A DNA stretch of 27,288 bases from Candidatus Omnitrophota bacterium (GTDB lineage: Bacteria; Omnitrophota; Gorgyraeia; JAFGHF01; JAZDEE01). The position numbers were made by a program, and so were the translations under genes. The stretch's first letter is position 1. Each line of letters begins with the position of its first letter. The notes under the pieces are model-generated. The model worked only from the letters and a program-made list of their open reading frames with translations. It ran no database searches and was not told where the DNA came from. The stretch spans positions 1 through 27,288 of the forward strand of contig JAZDEE010000102.1 of assembly GCA_043809065.1 (NCBI GenBank), given 5' to 3'. Positions 18,607-27,288 of the stretch are shown in pieces.

Positions 18607-19666
18607 CTACGGCATCTCGCTTAATTTAAAAACGCAATAGTCCTTGCATTTCAATCGTAAATAGGCATTTTCGTCTATCCCCATCTCACTATGAAATTTA
18701 TCAATAAAGGCCTGGGCGGCCAGAAAATGCCCATAAAGATTGGGATGCACTATATCCTCGGCAGCAATCTTAAGATTGTTGAATCCCGCCTGTTCAAATT
18801 TATCCACCATGTTCAAATATTTAATATCTAATTCTTCCAGAATGGCAATGACAGTTTCCCGCGCTTTTTTTTTGCCAGCCGCGATCGTATACAGCTTCAT
18901 CTAAGTGGGGATACAGGATGCAAAATAATAACGCTCCGTTTTTAGCGGCATACTCCTTAATTTTTGAAAAACCCTGTTTAACAATAGAGCTGTTCGCAAT
19001 CACTCCTTCAACCGAAGAATACTTTTTTATCCCAAACTGGGCTTTTTTAATTTTAAAATATCTATATACCGCCGAATATCTAAACAAAGCGGGATTATAT
19101 TCCCCCGCCGGTCCAAACAAGTTGTAAGCCATTTTCTTATCACGCGGGACAATCGTCATACAGGGCGTAAAATCATTCTCACAAAACCCAACTATTATTA
19201 TTTCAGGGGTCATTTTGATTCTTGTTTCCAAGTACAGCGCTTCTTGTAATGTATTATAGCCTCCTATCCCCGCGTTCCAGATTCGGTATGGTTCTTTCAG
19301 AAAAAATTCGAATGCCTTTTCCAAATATCTATACTGAAGCAAAGAATCACCAATTAAAAGGATGTCCTTTCCCTGTCCTGCCATATTTAAATACTTTTTC
19401 CCGTTCTGGCATCCGCAACAGCCGTCCGACGCAATCCAGGCTGGTCCAGGCACATATCCCAACTCGGAATCAGCAATCCATAAGTTATCTTTTATATGCC
19501 GATTAAAGTTAGGGTTGACGTCATCAAAAGTAAAATAGTGGCAGGCATTGTATTTACTCAGACAATATTCCAGAACTAACCAACATATAATTAGAGTGAC
19601 CAGCAGGATTGCCCAATTGGCCGCTATATTCAAAATCTTTTCACGAGCGCTAAAATTTTTCTTCAT
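18607..19666 (-). pseudogene. Membrane-anchored SGNH/GDSL hydrolase or O-acyltransferase, split by a frameshift at an A9 run (possibly phase-variable)
   Basis: ORF 18821-19666 has an N-terminal TM plus blocks I-III (LLIGDS, NAGIGGYN, GFCEND). ORF 18607-18900 has block V (EDIVHPNLYGH). Removing one A at 18865-18873 fuses them into 352 aa. Confidence 0.85.
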
Positions 19667-22679: not shown

Positions 22680-22854
22680 AATCACCACATCGAAATAACC
22701 AATAACCAAGAAACAATACCCAAACAATCACCAATAACCAAATTCAAATAACCAAACACGACGGGTTGTTTGATTATTGGTTATTGGGCTTTGGTTATTG
22801 TTTGGAATTTGTATCTTGGTCATTGGTTATTTTCTCACTGGTCATTGGAAATTT
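22680..22854. repeat. Heptamer-periodic palindrome, AATAACC/GGTTATT type (copy D)
   Basis: aataaccaataaccaagaaacaatacccaaacaatcaccaataacc... mirrored by ...ttattggttattgggctttggttattgtttggaatttgtatcttggtcattggttatt. Confidence 0.85.
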
Positions 22855-25800
22855 CAATCATGGCCTTCCTTCATAATTTTTTCATTATGCATTAAATTAT
22901 CGCATTCTTTCCGGCAGCCGATTTCTTTAAAATAAGCGTCTTCTTTAGACAAGTATTTCGCCTTGGCCCGGAATTCATTATATCGCGGGGAAAACCATAA
23001 GTTTTCAAACGAGTCCCGGTTAATATTACCCATTATCTTCTTTACCCCCCGGCAACAAGGCGCGACGCTGCCATCCGCCAATATCCGGGCAAAGGTCCAT
23101 CCCGCGTAACAAGGAATGCTGTCTATAACTGTCCGGTCATATTCTCCTTTGGCTAACCCTTCCGCTGGTTGAGACAGCCTTCTTAGAAATCCGGTAAAAA
23201 ACTCTAAACGCATATTGTCTTTTTTACTTCTCTCTTCTATCATTAAAGCGTCTTGGCGCAGTTGTTCCCGCTGGACACTATTCAGGAGAAATCTGTCGGT
23301 TTGCCCGGGCATAACATCCACCAGAGTAAAATAAAGCGCGTCCGCGCTGTATGACAAAGCAAACTCATACATATCCTGGATACCTTGAGCATTGATATTC
23401 ATAATTACGTTGGCCAGGGTCAGCCGCGGTTTGTCCCTTTTTATTTCCTTCAGGTAACGCAGATTATCGCATATCCGCGCGAAATAGCCGGGAGCTGCTC
23501 CCGGATGAACCGCGCAATATCCCCGGCTATCGGCCGCCCAGATACTGACGCATAATTCTTCCAGGCCTAAATTCACTAATCTCCGGATATCCTGCGGAGA
23601 AACCAGTCCAAAATTTGTAGTCAGCTCCACCAACAGCCCTTTTTTGCCGGCATATTCCATAATCTCCAGGAGGCCCTTGTGCATAAACGGTTCTCCTCCG
23701 CCGGTAAAACGGATTCTTTTTGTCCCCAGAGAAACCAAATCGTCGATTAGTTTGTATACTATATCTTTGGACAGCTCTTTCTGCAGCCATTCATGAGCGG
23801 ATTTTGTCTCTTTCAGAAAAGGAGAGTGCAGCCAACAGGCTACGCAGCGCAAATCGCATTTATTGGTCAGGTCAATGACTACCTGTTCCGGGCCGGTAAA
23901 AGCCCGGCGTCCGTGAACAATACCGGCGATTAACGGACTGCCGCGGTGATATTTCTGATATCCCTCTTTCCGGGTGCTCAGGCGCCGGACAATTTTAAGA
24001 TATTTAGCGGCCGTCTTAAGCAAGGCCCTCTCCGGAAGACTTAACATCGTCTTGCGGCTATGCATCCAGGTATTTCTGCCGATATCGTCGCAGCTTTTAT
24101 AACAGCCGGCTTCTTTGATTCCGGCATCGTTGCCGATAAGCCTAAAAAAAGGGTCGTTTTTTTGGTAAACCAGGGTCTTCTTACGGAAATTTGCCTGCCG
24201 GGAAGAATTCCATATCTCCGAAAACCTGTCCGAATATAATGACCCGGTAGGAATCCTATGCGCCTTTAAACAAGAATGCACTTCACCATTAGGGATAATC
24301 CGGGCAAAAAGCCAGCCGATATAACAAGGCATCCGGTCAATGATATTACGGTCATATTTGGCCTGCCGCGCGTCGGAAGATACTGAAATCCTGCGCAAAA
24401 ATTGGTCGAATTGAAAAATCAACACATTTTTGTCTTTCAATCTCCGGCAGTTATCCAGCCGGGATTCAATATTCCGGCACGATTTCCTTAACTCAGCAAG
24501 CTGTTCTTCATTCAACAGGAGAGCATCTGTGGCCCCGGGAATAGTATCCACTAAAGTAAACTCCACCGACTCCGACTTGGTTTCCTGGGCAAAATCGAGC
24601 ATTTGCTCTACCTCAAAATAATTCATATTAAAGAGGACATTGTAGAGTTTAATAAAAGGCTTGTTTTTTTTATGTGTATTCAGGTAAAGTAAATTATCTT
24701 TTAACCTGTAAAAATCTTCTTTTGTTCTGTTGCAGTGAGTCGCGACGTAAGTTTCTGCCCGCGCCGCCCAGGCGCTTACCGTAAGAAAATCCACTCCTAT
24801 ATCCACCAGGTAATCTAAACGTTCTTTATCCAGCAAGGTAAAGTTAGTATTCACGTGGCAGGTTAACCCTTTCTTCTTGCTGTATGCTAAAACATCCATA
24901 ATCTGCGGATGCATAAACGGTTCGCCGCTGCCGGAATAATAAATCTCCGCCGCCCCCATCCGGCGCAGTTCATCAAGCAGTTCCTTAACCATACCCAAAG
25001 GCAGGTATTGTTTTTTCTGCTCTTCGGACAATTTCTTTTCTTTTAACAGCGGCGAATTACACCAACAGGCAATACAGGCATTATTGCAATTATTAGTCAA
25101 ATCTATCTGCACGTGAAACGGGCCTTTATATCCGTATTCTCCATCGTAAATCCCCAGCATCTCTATATATCTGGCTTTAAAATTTTTTCGTAAACCGGAC
25201 AAAATTTTGGCCAGTGTAGGTTTTACCCCCCTTAAAGACACGCTCCTGCTGATCGCCGCCCAATAATTATGTTGGTTACGCTTTACTATAAACTTCGCCT
25301 GGGATCCTTCCGGAACAAAACTAAACGCCTCGATATGCGGGATATAGCCCCGGCTATACAAGCGCATATTATGTCTGCCCCTATTCAGCTCAATAGCGGC
25401 CTCCTTAAACCACTGGACATATTGGCTTGTCCATCCTCCCGTGCTGCTGCCCAAGGCGTTTTTCTTCAGCAATATCCCGTCAATATATATCTCCACGGGA
25501 CGAAACAGCCCGCTGGCATATTTAGCATAAAATACATATTTTTGATGCTCCGCCGCAAAAAACTCATATTCCGCCTGAGCCCAGCCCGCGCCTCCATCGA
25601 CAACTAAACCTTCCCCAAAATTGACGTCCCGCGCGTTCAAGTTTCCTGCTTTAAATTCCCGGGCTTTAATAAGAATGGCCCCTTCCGTCTTGCGGTCTCT
25701 TTTTTGTTCGTCCAGCCTTTGAAACAACTCTAAATTCATTCCCCGGTTATCGCAGCTTCGGACACAATTTATTTCCGCGAAACAGGCATTGTTTTTAGGC

Positions 25801-27134
25801 AGATTCCTGGCGTTAAATCTAAACTCTTGATACGCCGGGGAATTCCAGATCGCGAAGAAGGCCTCCCGGAATATATTTCCCAAAGAACTCCCGGAGGCCT
25901 TACAACAGGGAATCACATCGCCACTGGTGAGCACCCGCGCGTAATACCAGCCGATATAACAGGGAGAATGGATAATCTCCTGTTCGTAAATTCCTTTTTC
26001 TATATCAGGAGAAAGGCACCTGCGAATAAAAGAGCCAGCGCCCAAAATATTCATCAAGCGGACAGTCAATCTTCCGTCCGGTAAACAACGCGCGTTTTCC
26101 GCGCATCCTTTACATTGACTACTGGGAAAATTATATAAAAAAGCGCCCGGCCGCGTGCTCTGCGAGGGGTTGCCCGCTGAGCCGGCAATGATTTCATTTT
26201 CGATACGATAACCCTTTGGGCATACTAAAGCAGCGCAGGCCTTTTCTACTTTAAACCCGAGGATCGCGTTTTTCCAAATCTTACCAATACCGGCAATTTC
26301 CTCCGCGGAAAATTCAGTTAAAGGCGTATCGGAAGCAAACCCAAAGGAAACCATATCCTGCCGTTTTTGCAGCGTTTGGAATTGGCCAAGGACTTCGTTT
26401 AAATTGGCAGCGCTAAGCGCTAAATGATCGGTTTTACCCGGTATTGTATCTATAATTTGAAACTCCAGGGAATCCGCGTCGGCCTCTTTAGCGAATTCCG
26501 CCATTTCTTCGATATGGTTATAGTTACCGCGGCAAACCACATTGTAGATTTTCAAGTGCGGCAGACAAGAATGTTGTTTATTTTTATAAAAAACCAATCC
26601 GGCTAAATTAGCTTTTATATTTTCAAAATCTTCCTTTTGCTTGCCCGGATGCGTATCGCTATACCCCTGAGCGCTGCCTGCCCACATACTAACGGTAAGC
26701 AAATCTACCTTATATTCAAGGATAAACCGCGCCATTTCCTCGTTAATCAGGGCGGCGTTGGTAATGATGGTCAAATACATCTGCCGCTCCTTGATTGCGG
26801 CGATAACTTCTCTTATGGCCGGATATAAGAATGGTTCTCCGGATCCCGAAAGAATGATTTCCCGTGTTCCCCCTTTGTGCAATTCTCCAATAAGCTTCTT
26901 TACTAATTCTAAAGGAAGCTCTTTTTTCCCCCGAGGGAAAGCCTGTTTGCTGTCCACAAGCGGAGAATGCACCCAGCAGCCAATGCAGGAGTTATTACAT
27001 CTGTCGGTCAAATCTATCTGCACAGTATGCGGACCGCAAAATGCCTGCCGGCCATTCTCTATGCCCTTAAAAATCTTCGGCCAAATATCCGCGGTTGGCG
27101 GTTGGCGGTTGGCGGTTGGCGGTTTAGGATTCAT
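22854..27134 (-). CDS. 1426-aa protein: three tandem radical SAM + SPASM-like units with an internal CBM6/35-like domain
   Basis: CxxxCxxC at aa 46 (CNNSCIGC), 683 (CNNACIAC) and 1093 (CDLRCVAC), each followed by a G[SG]GEPF motif and a PCY[IA]GW...G-x-V-x-x-C...C-x3-CD region. A jelly-roll-like segment at about aa 486-606 contains AEYEF, YAS, RPVEIYIDG, TGGW, GRH, PHIE. Confidence 0.92.
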   Translation of the reverse strand: MNPKPPTANRQPPTADIWPKIFKGIENGRQAFCGPHTVQIDLTDRCNNSCIGCWVHSPLVDSKQAFPRGKKELPLELVKKLIGELHKGGTREIILSGSGEPFLYPAIREVIAAIKERQMYLTIITNAALINEEMARFILEYKVDLLTVSMWAGSAQGYSDTHPGKQKEDFENIKANLAGLVFYKNKQHSCLPHLKIYNVVCRGNYNHIEEMAEFAKEADADSLEFQIIDTIPGKTDHLALSAANLNEVLGQFQTLQKRQDMVSFGFASDTPLTEFSAEEIAGIGKIWKNAILGFKVEKACAALVCPKGYRIENEIIAGSAGNPSQSTRPGAFLYNFPSSQCKGCAENARCLPDGRLTVRLMNILGAGSFIRRCLSPDIEKGIYEQEIIHSPCYIGWYYARVLTSGDVIPCCKASGSSLGNIFREAFFAIWNSPAYQEFRFNARNLPKNNACFAEINCVRSCDNRGMNLELFQRLDEQKRDRKTEGAILIKAREFKAGNLNARDVNFGEGLVVDGGAGWAQAEYEFFAAEHQKYVFYAKYASGLFRPVEIYIDGILLKKNALGSSTGGWTSQYVQWFKEAAIELNRGRHNMRLYSRGYIPHIEAFSFVPEGSQAKFIVKRNQHNYWAAISRSVSLRGVKPTLAKILSGLRKNFKARYIEMLGIYDGEYGYKGPFHVQIDLTNNCNNACIACWCNSPLLKEKKLSEEQKKQYLPLGMVKELLDELRRMGAAEIYYSGSGEPFMHPQIMDVLAYSKKKGLTCHVNTNFTLLDKERLDYLVDIGVDFLTVSAWAARAETYVATHCNRTKEDFYRLKDNLLYLNTHKKNKPFIKLYNVLFNMNYFEVEQMLDFAQETKSESVEFTLVDTIPGATDALLLNEEQLAELRKSCRNIESRLDNCRRLKDKNVLIFQFDQFLRRISVSSDARQAKYDRNIIDRMPCYIGWLFARIIPNGEVHSCLKAHRIPTGSLYSDRFSEIWNSSRQANFRKKTLVYQKNDPFFRLIGNDAGIKEAGCYKSCDDIGRNTWMHSRKTMLSLPERALLKTAAKYLKIVRRLSTRKEGYQKYHRGSPLIAGIVHGRRAFTGPEQVVIDLTNKCDLRCVACWLHSPFLKETKSAHEWLQKELSKDIVYKLIDDLVSLGTKRIRFTGGGEPFMHKGLLEIMEYAGKKGLLVELTTNFGLVSPQDIRRLVNLGLEELCVSIWAADSRGYCAVHPGAAPGYFARICDNLRYLKEIKRDKPRLTLANVIMNINAQGIQDMYEFALSYSADALYFTLVDVMPGQTDRFLLNSVQREQLRQDALMIEERSKKDNMRLEFFTGFLRRLSQPAEGLAKGEYDRTVIDSIPCYAGWTFARILADGSVAPCCRGVKKIMGNINRDSFENLWFSPRYNEFRAKAKYLSKEDAYFKEIGCRKECDNLMHNEKIMKEGHD
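27090..27124. repeat. Heptamer microsatellite (GGCGGTT) x5 just inside the start of the giant radical SAM gene
   Basis: cgcggtt ggcggtt ggcggtt ggcggtt ggcggtt; on the coding strand it begins 10 nt after the A of the ATG at 27134. Confidence 0.9.
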
Positions 27135-27288
27135 TATACTCTGCTTCCTATGTACCTGATATTATCTATGGAATACTTTGCTGTCTTTTTTAAAGCTGCG
27201 GCAGGGCCTGAATGCCGCCAACAATAAAAGAAGTGGTGGAGATTACCCTTTATTCCTCTTTGCTTATTCTGGTGCCGGGCCCACCTGC
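27134..27288 (-). CDS. 3' end of an upstream gene (partial, unknown product)
   Basis: Open frame from the window edge (RWARHQNK...KYSIDNIRYIGSRV) ending in a TAA that overlaps the next ATG (TAATG coupling). Confidence 0.5.
   Translation of the reverse strand, partial: RWARHQNKQRGIKGNLHHFFYCWRHSGPAAALKKTAKYSIDNIRYIGSRV

Follow-up and report, generated by a model that had tools for sequence, protein, structure and literature searches.

The 27,288-nucleotide window analyzed here is the entire contig C102 (JAZDEE010000102.1) of a metagenome-assembled genome (MAG) of a Candidatus Omnitrophota bacterium, a fragmented, 68%-complete assembly of 1.36 Mb. Close to one end of the window, on the reverse strand, lies a gene encoding a predicted triple radical S-adenosylmethionine (SAM) protein, P0001, in which three radical SAM units with twitch-type auxiliary domains share one chain with a beta-sandwich of the carbohydrate-binding module (CBM) 35/6 type. 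The gene is preceded by a B12-binding radical SAM gene and followed by an NPCBM/NEW2-domain protein, a fourth radical SAM/SPASM protein and a family 4 glycosyltransferase (GT4). These features are listed in Table 1, together with two domain or protein types found on other contigs of the genome and in the loci of relatives.

Table 1. Features of the triple radical SAM gene, its neighbors and related loci. Positions are those of the window unless a contig (C) or locus (L) is named; aa, amino acids.
Feature	Position	Strand	Description
Triple radical SAM/twitch protein P0001 with embedded CBM35/6-like domain	22854..27134	-	1426 aa; stop codon 22854-22856
Unit 1, residues 1-477	25704..27134	-	Radical SAM core, unit-specific insert and predicted twitch-type auxiliary domain (C392, C410, C411, C457, C461)
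Unit 1 SAM-cluster motif CNNSCIGC (C46, C50, C53)	26976..26999	-	100% conserved in 64 homologs
Unit-1-only insert of 94 aa, residues 261-354, with C305, C341, C344 and C350	26073..26354	-	Unmatched in the alignment of unit 1 with unit 2
CBM35/CBM6-fold beta-sandwich, residues 484-612	25299..25685	-	AlphaFold2, Foldseek, VIA-align and profile match
Two-helix linker, residues 614-650, from CBM to unit 2	25185..25295	-	Helices 137-158 and 160-172 in model numbering; low conservation (0.35)
Unit 2, residues 651-1050	23985..25184	-	Radical SAM core and predicted four-Cys twitch domain (C937, C955, C1011, C1015)
Unit 2 SAM-cluster motif CNNACIAC (C683, C687, C690)	25065..25088	-	Followed by invariant C692
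Unit 3, residues 1051-1426	22857..23984	-	Radical SAM core and predicted twitch domain (C1342, C1360, C1361, C1407, C1411)
Unit 3 SAM-cluster motif CDLRCVAC (C1093, C1097, C1100)	23835..23858	-	Motif scan; conserved in homologs
Upstream B12-binding radical SAM gene, 3' end	27135..27288	-	Final 154 bases of the window; its stop codon and the triple-gene start codon share bases (TAATG)
NPCBM/NEW2-domain protein, 180 aa	22090..22632	-	Pfam E 2.6e-22; hydrophobic, signal-like N-terminus; directly downstream of the triple gene
Fourth radical SAM/SPASM protein, 378 aa	20858..21994	-	Downstream of the triple gene
GT4 glycosyltransferase, 411 aa	19650..20885	-	Counterparts 48-67% identical in 5/5 compared loci
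281-aa open reading frame after GT4	18821..19666	-	Zero Pfam/NCBIfam matches
Amine-oxidase-like protein (PRK07208-like)	C93 2-982; L009 3506-4810; L010 2112-3407; L014 2393-3676		Upstream of Wzm
Supersandwich domain of ~210 aa	L006 (C63) 2-1060, 1230-1877; C93 1626-3206; relatives L008-L012		Invariant W..DS, W, Y, P

The triple gene is a single open reading frame of 1426 codons with no internal stop. A Pfam scan finds the Radical_SAM domain three times (whole-protein E 2.1e-50) and the SPASM domain three times (E 9e-34), and each third of the protein, scanned singly, exceeds the Pfam gathering cut-offs; for PF04055 the whole protein scores 171.6 bits and the single units 53 to 66 bits against a cut-off of 29.5 bits. 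Searched with word seeding, a set of 5.8 billion proteins gave 256 matches at E <= 1e-10, with 64 full-length homologs of 1390 to 1490 residues that are 43 to 72% identical to the query across 97 to 99% of its length. Their only database label is 'radical SAM protein'; almost all stem from MAGs of Candidatus Omnitrophota, and wherever a source organism is named it is this one. All 64 keep the three CxxxCxxC motifs and the same order of units, with conserved linker lengths, and most are encoded on contigs of different assemblies. Other architectures also occur: proteins of ∼1290 residues lack the middle domain, proteins of 1917 to 1954 residues carry a B12-binding radical SAM enzyme fused in front, giving four radical SAM domains, and split variants encode unit 1 apart from units 2 and 3. 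In a sample of the phylum, a match at E <= 1e-100 is present in 38 of 301 genomes. Fused multi-unit forms, including full-length open frames, are found in about a dozen of them, while many others match unit 2 only (∼50% identical), several of them in frames the size of a single unit.

A misassembled fusion, or a set of separate genes with lost stop codons, was an outcome that the original prediction had itself allowed for. The fragmented and incomplete MAG, with its strain-variant contigs, could give rise to such an artefact. However, the frame is uninterrupted, and the order of units and all motifs recur in the 64 homologs, as do the linker lengths, and in full-length frames from other genomes of the phylum, which makes an artefact exceedingly improbable. 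Integrity is judged here from these homologs, the only public read run found having contained 5% of the sampled words, as contigs.

The units are mutually closest paralogs (42% identity between units 1 and 2, 38% between 2 and 3, and 35% between 1 and 3), whereas the other radical SAM/SPASM genes of the same genome share just 22 to 29% identity with them. A maximum-likelihood tree sorts the sequences into clades by unit position, not by genome (support 100/100 for unit 2 and 87/91 for unit 3); the sole disturbance of the unit 1 grouping is the placement of the long-branch outgroup. The triplication is therefore older than the spread of the family. The fusion is ancient, with each unit position orthologous across the homologs. 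Unit 2 is the most conserved of the three.

A hydropathy scan, made without a signal-peptide predictor, gives no sign of a membrane segment or signal peptide, the strongest 19-residue Kyte-Doolittle mean being 1.16; the protein had been described as lacking a signal peptide, and this agrees. At the N-terminus, 7-bp repeats (CCGCCAA, four to five units, positions 27090-27124) lie just inside the start codon and encode a PPTANRQPPTA extension that is missing from most homologs, in which the first cluster motif begins at about residue 33 to 36 versus 46 here. The strain-variant contig C64 has an equal number of CCGCCAA units, with one base changed.

Each unit opens with a G-I-x-x-G...GP...V-x-IDLT lead-in ahead of its cluster motif, and a GGE-type SAM motif follows (GSGEP, GSGEP and GGGEP at residues 97, 735 and 1145), so that the three intact openings described in the original prediction are borne out. 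The same prediction had described the units as radical SAM/SPASM, each closing with an auxiliary-cluster Cys region. The auxiliary Cys sets of all three units are invariant among the 64 homologs, but the class changes. Each region holds four to five conserved Cys, arranged as a hairpin with two flanking Cys followed by a distal CxxxC pair. A truncated SPASM (twitch) domain binds one auxiliary cluster, whereas the full SPASM domain is recognized by a seven-Cys pattern (PMC9012708). In P0001 the full pattern (seven to eight Cys, with CX2CX5CX3C after the hairpin), which serves to bind two auxiliary clusters, is absent, only the CxxxC pair following each hairpin, and the Pfam SPASM model aligns no further than its positions 1-53 to 1-63 out of 67 (Pfam spans in unit 1: Radical_SAM 42-156, SPASM 392-451). 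A CX2CX5C does exist in unit 1, but upstream of the hairpin, inside the insert. All three auxiliary domains are thus best classified, from their Cys patterns, as truncated twitch domains and not as full SPASM domains.

With the SAM-cluster motifs and the auxiliary Cys sets all conserved, at least six [4Fe-4S] sites are expected per chain, in agreement with the earlier suggestion of six or more. The unit 1 insert, located between the core and the twitch domain, could provide a further one: C305, C341 and C350 are conserved in 100% of the 64 homologs and C344 in 84%, making this four-Cys element a candidate metal or Fe-S site, the seventh in the protein. As for named NCBIfam families, the best-scoring ones (W_rSAM_matur, AhbD, NirJ, MoaA and PqqE) were rejected, the scores of the individual units all being far under the curated cut-offs. 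N_Twi_rSAM was likewise set aside: the whole protein passes its cut-off (179.7 versus 170 bits) because the scores of the three units sum, and single units reach 40 to 85 bits.

For every unit profile the best solved relative is BtrN (E 6.6e-9, 2.1e-5 and 1.8e-11 for units 1, 2 and 3), the 2-deoxy-scyllo-inosamine dehydrogenase of butirosin biosynthesis (PDB 4M7S/4M7T) and the founding twitch-domain radical SAM enzyme. The unit 1 match runs through the twitch region. With the unit 3 profile the twitch hairpin is aligned and both flanking Cys are matched: the consensus Cys of PCyaGw/PCC, taken as C1342/C1360, are aligned with the Cys on either side of the BtrN hairpin. Together with the later Cys pair of each unit, four Cys would be available for one auxiliary [4Fe-4S] cluster, as in BtrN (PMC9012708). 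The substrate of BtrN is a sugar-like cyclitol. Unlike BtrN, a single enzyme of the 250-residue class acting on a small aminocyclitol, P0001 fuses three units of ∼380 to 475 residues; its distal Cys pair is CxxxC, an additional adjacent Cys occurs in units 1 and 3, unit 1 carries the 94-residue Cys4 insert, and overall identity is low.

Profile matches in the PDB extend further to BlsE (units 1 to 3), DesII (units 2 and 3) and MoaA (unit 3), and a single-sequence search with unit 3 gives BlsE (E 1.1e-6) and DesII (E 6.4e-4) as its best PDB matches. BlsE, a cytosylglucuronate decarboxylase (PDB 7VOB), and DesII (PDB 8HZV), likewise a sugar-modifying radical SAM enzyme, illustrate radical chemistry on sugar rings within this branch of the superfamily. 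However, both are stand-alone enzymes of antibiotic pathways acting on nucleoside- or nucleotide-linked monosaccharides, and neither has a CBM, a tandem fusion or a link to a polysaccharide exporter. A precedent for several radical SAM domains in one polypeptide is FbiC, a fusion of CofG and CofH, but its two domains are non-paralogous and serve one cofactor, whereas P0001 combines three paralogous twitch units with a CBM-like domain (and the relatives of 1917 to 1954 residues have four radical SAM domains).

The region between units 1 and 2 (residues 478-650) has no Pfam or NCBIfam match. Its AlphaFold2 model, built from the 64-homolog alignment with a mean predicted local distance difference test (pLDDT) of 88.5, shows a beta-sandwich followed by the two linker helices. 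Almost all of the top 50 PDB matches of the model are CBM35/CBM6 modules or CBM-bearing enzymes (Foldseek E 1.6e-8, template modeling (TM) score by target 0.72 to 0.78; VIA-align Z up to 16.5, root-mean-square deviation (rmsd) 2.1 Å over 124 residues), and the AlphaFold DB clusters concur. The 64-sequence profile of the domain reaches CBM35 (2w1w/2w47, E 7.5e-5) and CBM6E (8j3x, E 1.9e-4); it shares the framework motif YA...RP...i.vdG with CBM35, and Y539, R545, W568, P599 and H600 are invariant. The original prediction had placed a CBM6/35-like domain at about 25310-25680, a call that is correct at the level of the fold since Foldseek, VIA-align and profile matches agree, and that the model supports with a sandwich of the CBM type. 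The domain is accordingly described here as CBM6/35-type in predicted fold and remote homology, with putative sugar binding.

CBM35/CBM6 modules such as those of C. thermocellum (2W1W/2W47), Xyn30D (4QB2) and an agarase (CBM6, 2CDP) match its fold with Z 15 to 16.5 and rmsd ∼2.1 Å over ∼120 residues. These classical modules belong to secreted glycoside hydrolases and lyases, whereas the present one lies inside a predicted cytoplasmic Fe-S enzyme and has its nearest relatives on other radical SAM proteins. An exhaustive hidden Markov model search assigns 1579 cluster representatives to the domain family. Within the ten best matches that were scanned, the nearest copies are carried by unit-1-type radical SAM proteins (one or two copies), a B12-binding radical SAM protein (C-terminal) and unit-2-type radical SAM proteins (N-terminal), and in the split forms of the triple protein it is attached either C-terminally to unit 1 or N-terminally to unit 2. 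More distant copies occur on exported Planctomycete-type PSCyt/PSD1 proteins. Kinship with the neighboring NPCBM protein was considered and rejected (no similarity, BLASTP E 0.085), as was kinship with the ∼210-residue domain described below (hhalign probability 0.4%).

Genomic neighborhood analysis of eight relatives from different assemblies reveals a conserved operon around the triple gene. Seven of them have a B12-type radical SAM gene of ∼730 to 800 codons directly upstream, and in the eighth this gene is fused to the triple gene; in the present genome the two genes are translationally coupled through overlapping stop and start codons. Just before the B12-type gene, again in seven of eight relatives, are genes for Wzm and a long Wzt (629 to 1165 residues). 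Downstream follow further radical SAM and B12-type radical SAM genes and then, in most relatives, GT4, GT4 and GT2 genes, with GT4 or GT2 genes present in all eight. Some loci also encode Wzy_C, PMT_2, heptosyltransferase, GDSL/SGNH (L013 and the locus of P0016) and GDP-sugar epimerase/dehydratase proteins. An FAD/NAD-binding, amine-oxidase-like protein that weakly matches UDP-galactopyranose mutase and HpnE is encoded directly before Wzm in four of the eight relatives and in this genome. The best family match of the B12-type partner is HpnJ (244 bits, under the cut-off). With an ABC-2 permease and its ATPase beside cytoplasmic glycosyltransferases, gene content places the triple gene in a predicted glycan locus of the Wzm/Wzt, or ATP-binding cassette (ABC) transporter-dependent, type.

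The same arrangement can be pieced together in the present genome. Contig C64, which overlaps the window end by 468 nucleotides at 93% identity, carries the remainder of the B12-type radical SAM gene; C63 overlaps C64 at 90 to 93%, and C93 bears the start of the long Wzt whose end is on C63. Laid out as C93, C63, C64 and C102, the contigs give the order amine-oxidase-like FAD protein, Wzm, long Wzt, a fusion of supersandwich domain, B12-type radical SAM and radical SAM/SPASM, B12-type radical SAM, triple enzyme, NPCBM protein, radical SAM/SPASM and GT4. These contigs represent strain variants and not one continuous sequence, because the overlaps are only 90 to 93% identical. A B12-type radical SAM coding sequence apparently occurs twice, ∼93% alike and flanking a radical SAM/SPASM unit (L006, on C63, 1917-3206 versus 5058-5859, and L005, on C64); the doubling on C63 is either a tandem duplication or an assembly effect of the strain mixture. 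Within the window, the fourth radical SAM protein has counterparts at the equivalent place that are 62 to 66% identical in three of five compared loci and 45% identical in a fourth, and the NPCBM/NEW2 protein has no counterpart in the five. Farther downstream lie genes for a GDP-mannose-type nucleotidyltransferase (ManC) and a phosphomannomutase (PMM).

A second accessory domain links the exporter to the radical enzymes. The Wzt tail bears two to four copies of an all-beta domain of ∼210 residues. A single copy is N-terminal in the B12-type radical SAM protein, and the domain is also found at the C-terminal end of other locus proteins and as small stand-alone proteins. It has no Pfam match. 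Its model (pLDDT 92.8) adopts a galactose-mutarotase-like supersandwich, similar to the one present in glycoside hydrolases and in the periplasmic domain of YidC (TM score by query 0.72, E 1.4e-5). The presence of a common sugar-associated, recognition-type module on exporter and radical enzymes is the strongest indirect evidence that the two deal with the same glycan.

The locus can be compared with Wzm/Wzt O-polysaccharide pathways such as that of E. coli O9a, in which the C-terminal carbohydrate-binding domain of Wzt recognizes a modification at the chain end. Both have Wzm and Wzt beside cytoplasmic glycosyltransferases, C-terminal beta-sandwiches on Wzt and tailoring genes in the same operon. 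In contrast to the O9a type, Wzt here carries two to four supersandwich repeats instead of Pfam Wzt_C, and tailoring would fall to five to nine radical SAM domains and not to a methyltransferase/kinase terminator.

Across the whole genome, 46 Radical_SAM (PF04055) matches are spread over 1.36 Mb, a density of roughly one in 30 kb; strain-variant contigs account for some duplicates, and many matches are located in multi-domain proteins. Elsewhere in the genome, a second export module (L007, on C41, 2-5933) comprises Wzm, a Wzt in which Wzt_C is matched in two stretches, and a GT2-radical SAM fusion. This fusion protein, cut by the contig end, has at least 1150 residues and joins GT2 to a radical SAM/SPASM unit and a second radical SAM unit.

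Taken with the domain content, this context makes it fairly probable that P0001 is a soluble, cytoplasmic, three-module enzyme performing multi-step radical tailoring of a lipid-linked glycan before its export. The original prediction had proposed cytoplasmic tailoring of a glycan or lipid-linked oligosaccharide; it is supported in each part open to a check, and the locus supplies a strong glycan context, while the substrate and the reactions are what we infer from genomic context. In such a scheme the CBM would hold the glycan chain, and each module would cleave SAM, the resulting 5'-deoxyadenosyl radical removing hydrogen from a carbon of the sugar. The second electron would then pass to the auxiliary cluster, a role that has been proposed for the auxiliary cluster of BtrN (PMC9012708). 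The products, at up to three positions, would be keto-sugars, or sugars that are epimerized, dehydrated or decarboxylated; the B12-type partners might add C-methyl groups or rearrange rings, and Wzm/Wzt would export the finished polymer. A bolder version, which we offer tentatively and consider less probable than its opposite, is a radical assembly line in which the CBM threads the lipid-linked polysaccharide past three catalytically distinct modules. Together with the B12-type enzymes, these might install several modifications (keto, epimerized, C-methylated or carbocyclic) per repeat or chain end, which the Wzt domains would read as an export signal.

Several observations weigh against the assignment to glycan tailoring. 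The matches to BtrN, BlsE and DesII remain remote (E 1e-5 to 1e-11) and reflect mainly generic features of the core and the twitch domain. Pfam CBM models do not reach the middle domain, and a CBM fold, here a predicted one, would by itself be no proof of sugar binding. The upstream operon of this genome is pieced together from contigs that overlap at only 90 to 93%. [quoted passage not shown]

That last label would fit an RiPP or protein maturase that forms thioethers, epimers or C-C crosslinks on a peptide or protein exported by the ABC-2 transporter, as would the Pfam SPASM matches and weak NCBIfam matches to maturases of the PqqE, AlbA, StsB, WgkB and YydG types. All of these maturase scores, however, are far under the cut-offs. 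No RiPP recognition element (PqqD-like/RRE) is matched in Pfam, with only ∼35 to 45 residues available before each CxxxCxxC. A scan of nine stretches, namely the part of the window downstream of 17000, three more contigs from the same genome and the loci of five relatives, revealed no conserved small intergenic frame and no Cys-rich precursor candidate, counting ATG starts only and allowing that a precursor gene may be distant. Nor is there a peptidase or PCAT-type exporter: the transporter belongs to the Wzm/Wzt type, with GT4, GT2, Wzy_C, PMT_2 and sugar-nucleotide enzymes as neighbors. A maturase thus seems very unlikely. As another alternative, of slightly greater weight, the modules could modify a lipid, whether a polyprenyl or other carrier or the aglycone of a glycolipid, in place of the sugars. 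The likeness of the B12-type partner to HpnJ of the hopanoid pathway, with weaker matches to lipid B12-type radical SAM enzymes, points in this direction, as do the phytoene-desaturase/HpnE-like character of the FAD protein before Wzm and weak matches of unit 2 to the tetraether synthase Tes and of unit 3 to the GDGT-MAS structure. Yet every match to a lipid enzyme is far under its cut-off, HpnJ itself probably acts on the sugar part of its hopanoid, the top solved relatives of the units use sugars or a sugar-like cyclitol, and two distinct sugar-associated beta-sandwich domains are found on the radical SAM enzymes and the exporter. We regard modification of a lipid as improbable.

A glycan role would also be served if the three modules acted on soluble nucleotide-sugar precursors, with the CBM-like domain tethering them to the assembly/export complex or to the nascent chain. 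Small molecules are the substrates of BtrN, BlsE and DesII alike, and sugar-nucleotide genes are close by (ManC and PMM in the window, GDP-mannose-dehydratase-type epimerases in L013). Set against this are the retention, and at times duplication, of the CBM on radical SAM proteins and the sugar-associated domain common to the Wzt tail and the B12-type enzyme, both of which are easier to explain if the enzymes recognize the exporter's polymer. Action on soluble precursors is judged rather unlikely.

Radical SAM enzymes, twitch domains, CBM35/6 modules and Wzm/Wzt exporters are each of a known kind; what appears to be new, from the domain assignments made here, is their combination, with three radical SAM units per chain, a predicted cytoplasmic CBM and a conserved link to a polysaccharide exporter. 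Literature searches (Omnitrophota radical SAM, multi-radical SAM proteins, radical SAM with Wzt) returned only passing mentions of radical SAM in long Omnitrophota proteins, and the family is undescribed there. To our knowledge, radical SAM chemistry on sugars has been shown for small molecules only, in aminoglycoside, nucleoside-antibiotic and deoxysugar pathways. If tailoring of a lipid-linked glycan is correct, this chemistry would extend to polymeric cell-surface glycans and would introduce sugar modifications not yet seen in bacterial envelopes; if the modules do form an assembly line, they would represent a class of polysaccharide tailoring chemistry without described precedent. With six to seven predicted clusters, the protein would also be a natural test case for the reduction and coordination of several Fe-S modules in one chain, and genome-mining tools may mislabel gene clusters of this kind as RiPP loci. 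Finally, Omnitrophota are uncultured, very small and probably host-dependent or predatory bacteria, and surface chemistry is therefore likely to be central to their lifestyle.

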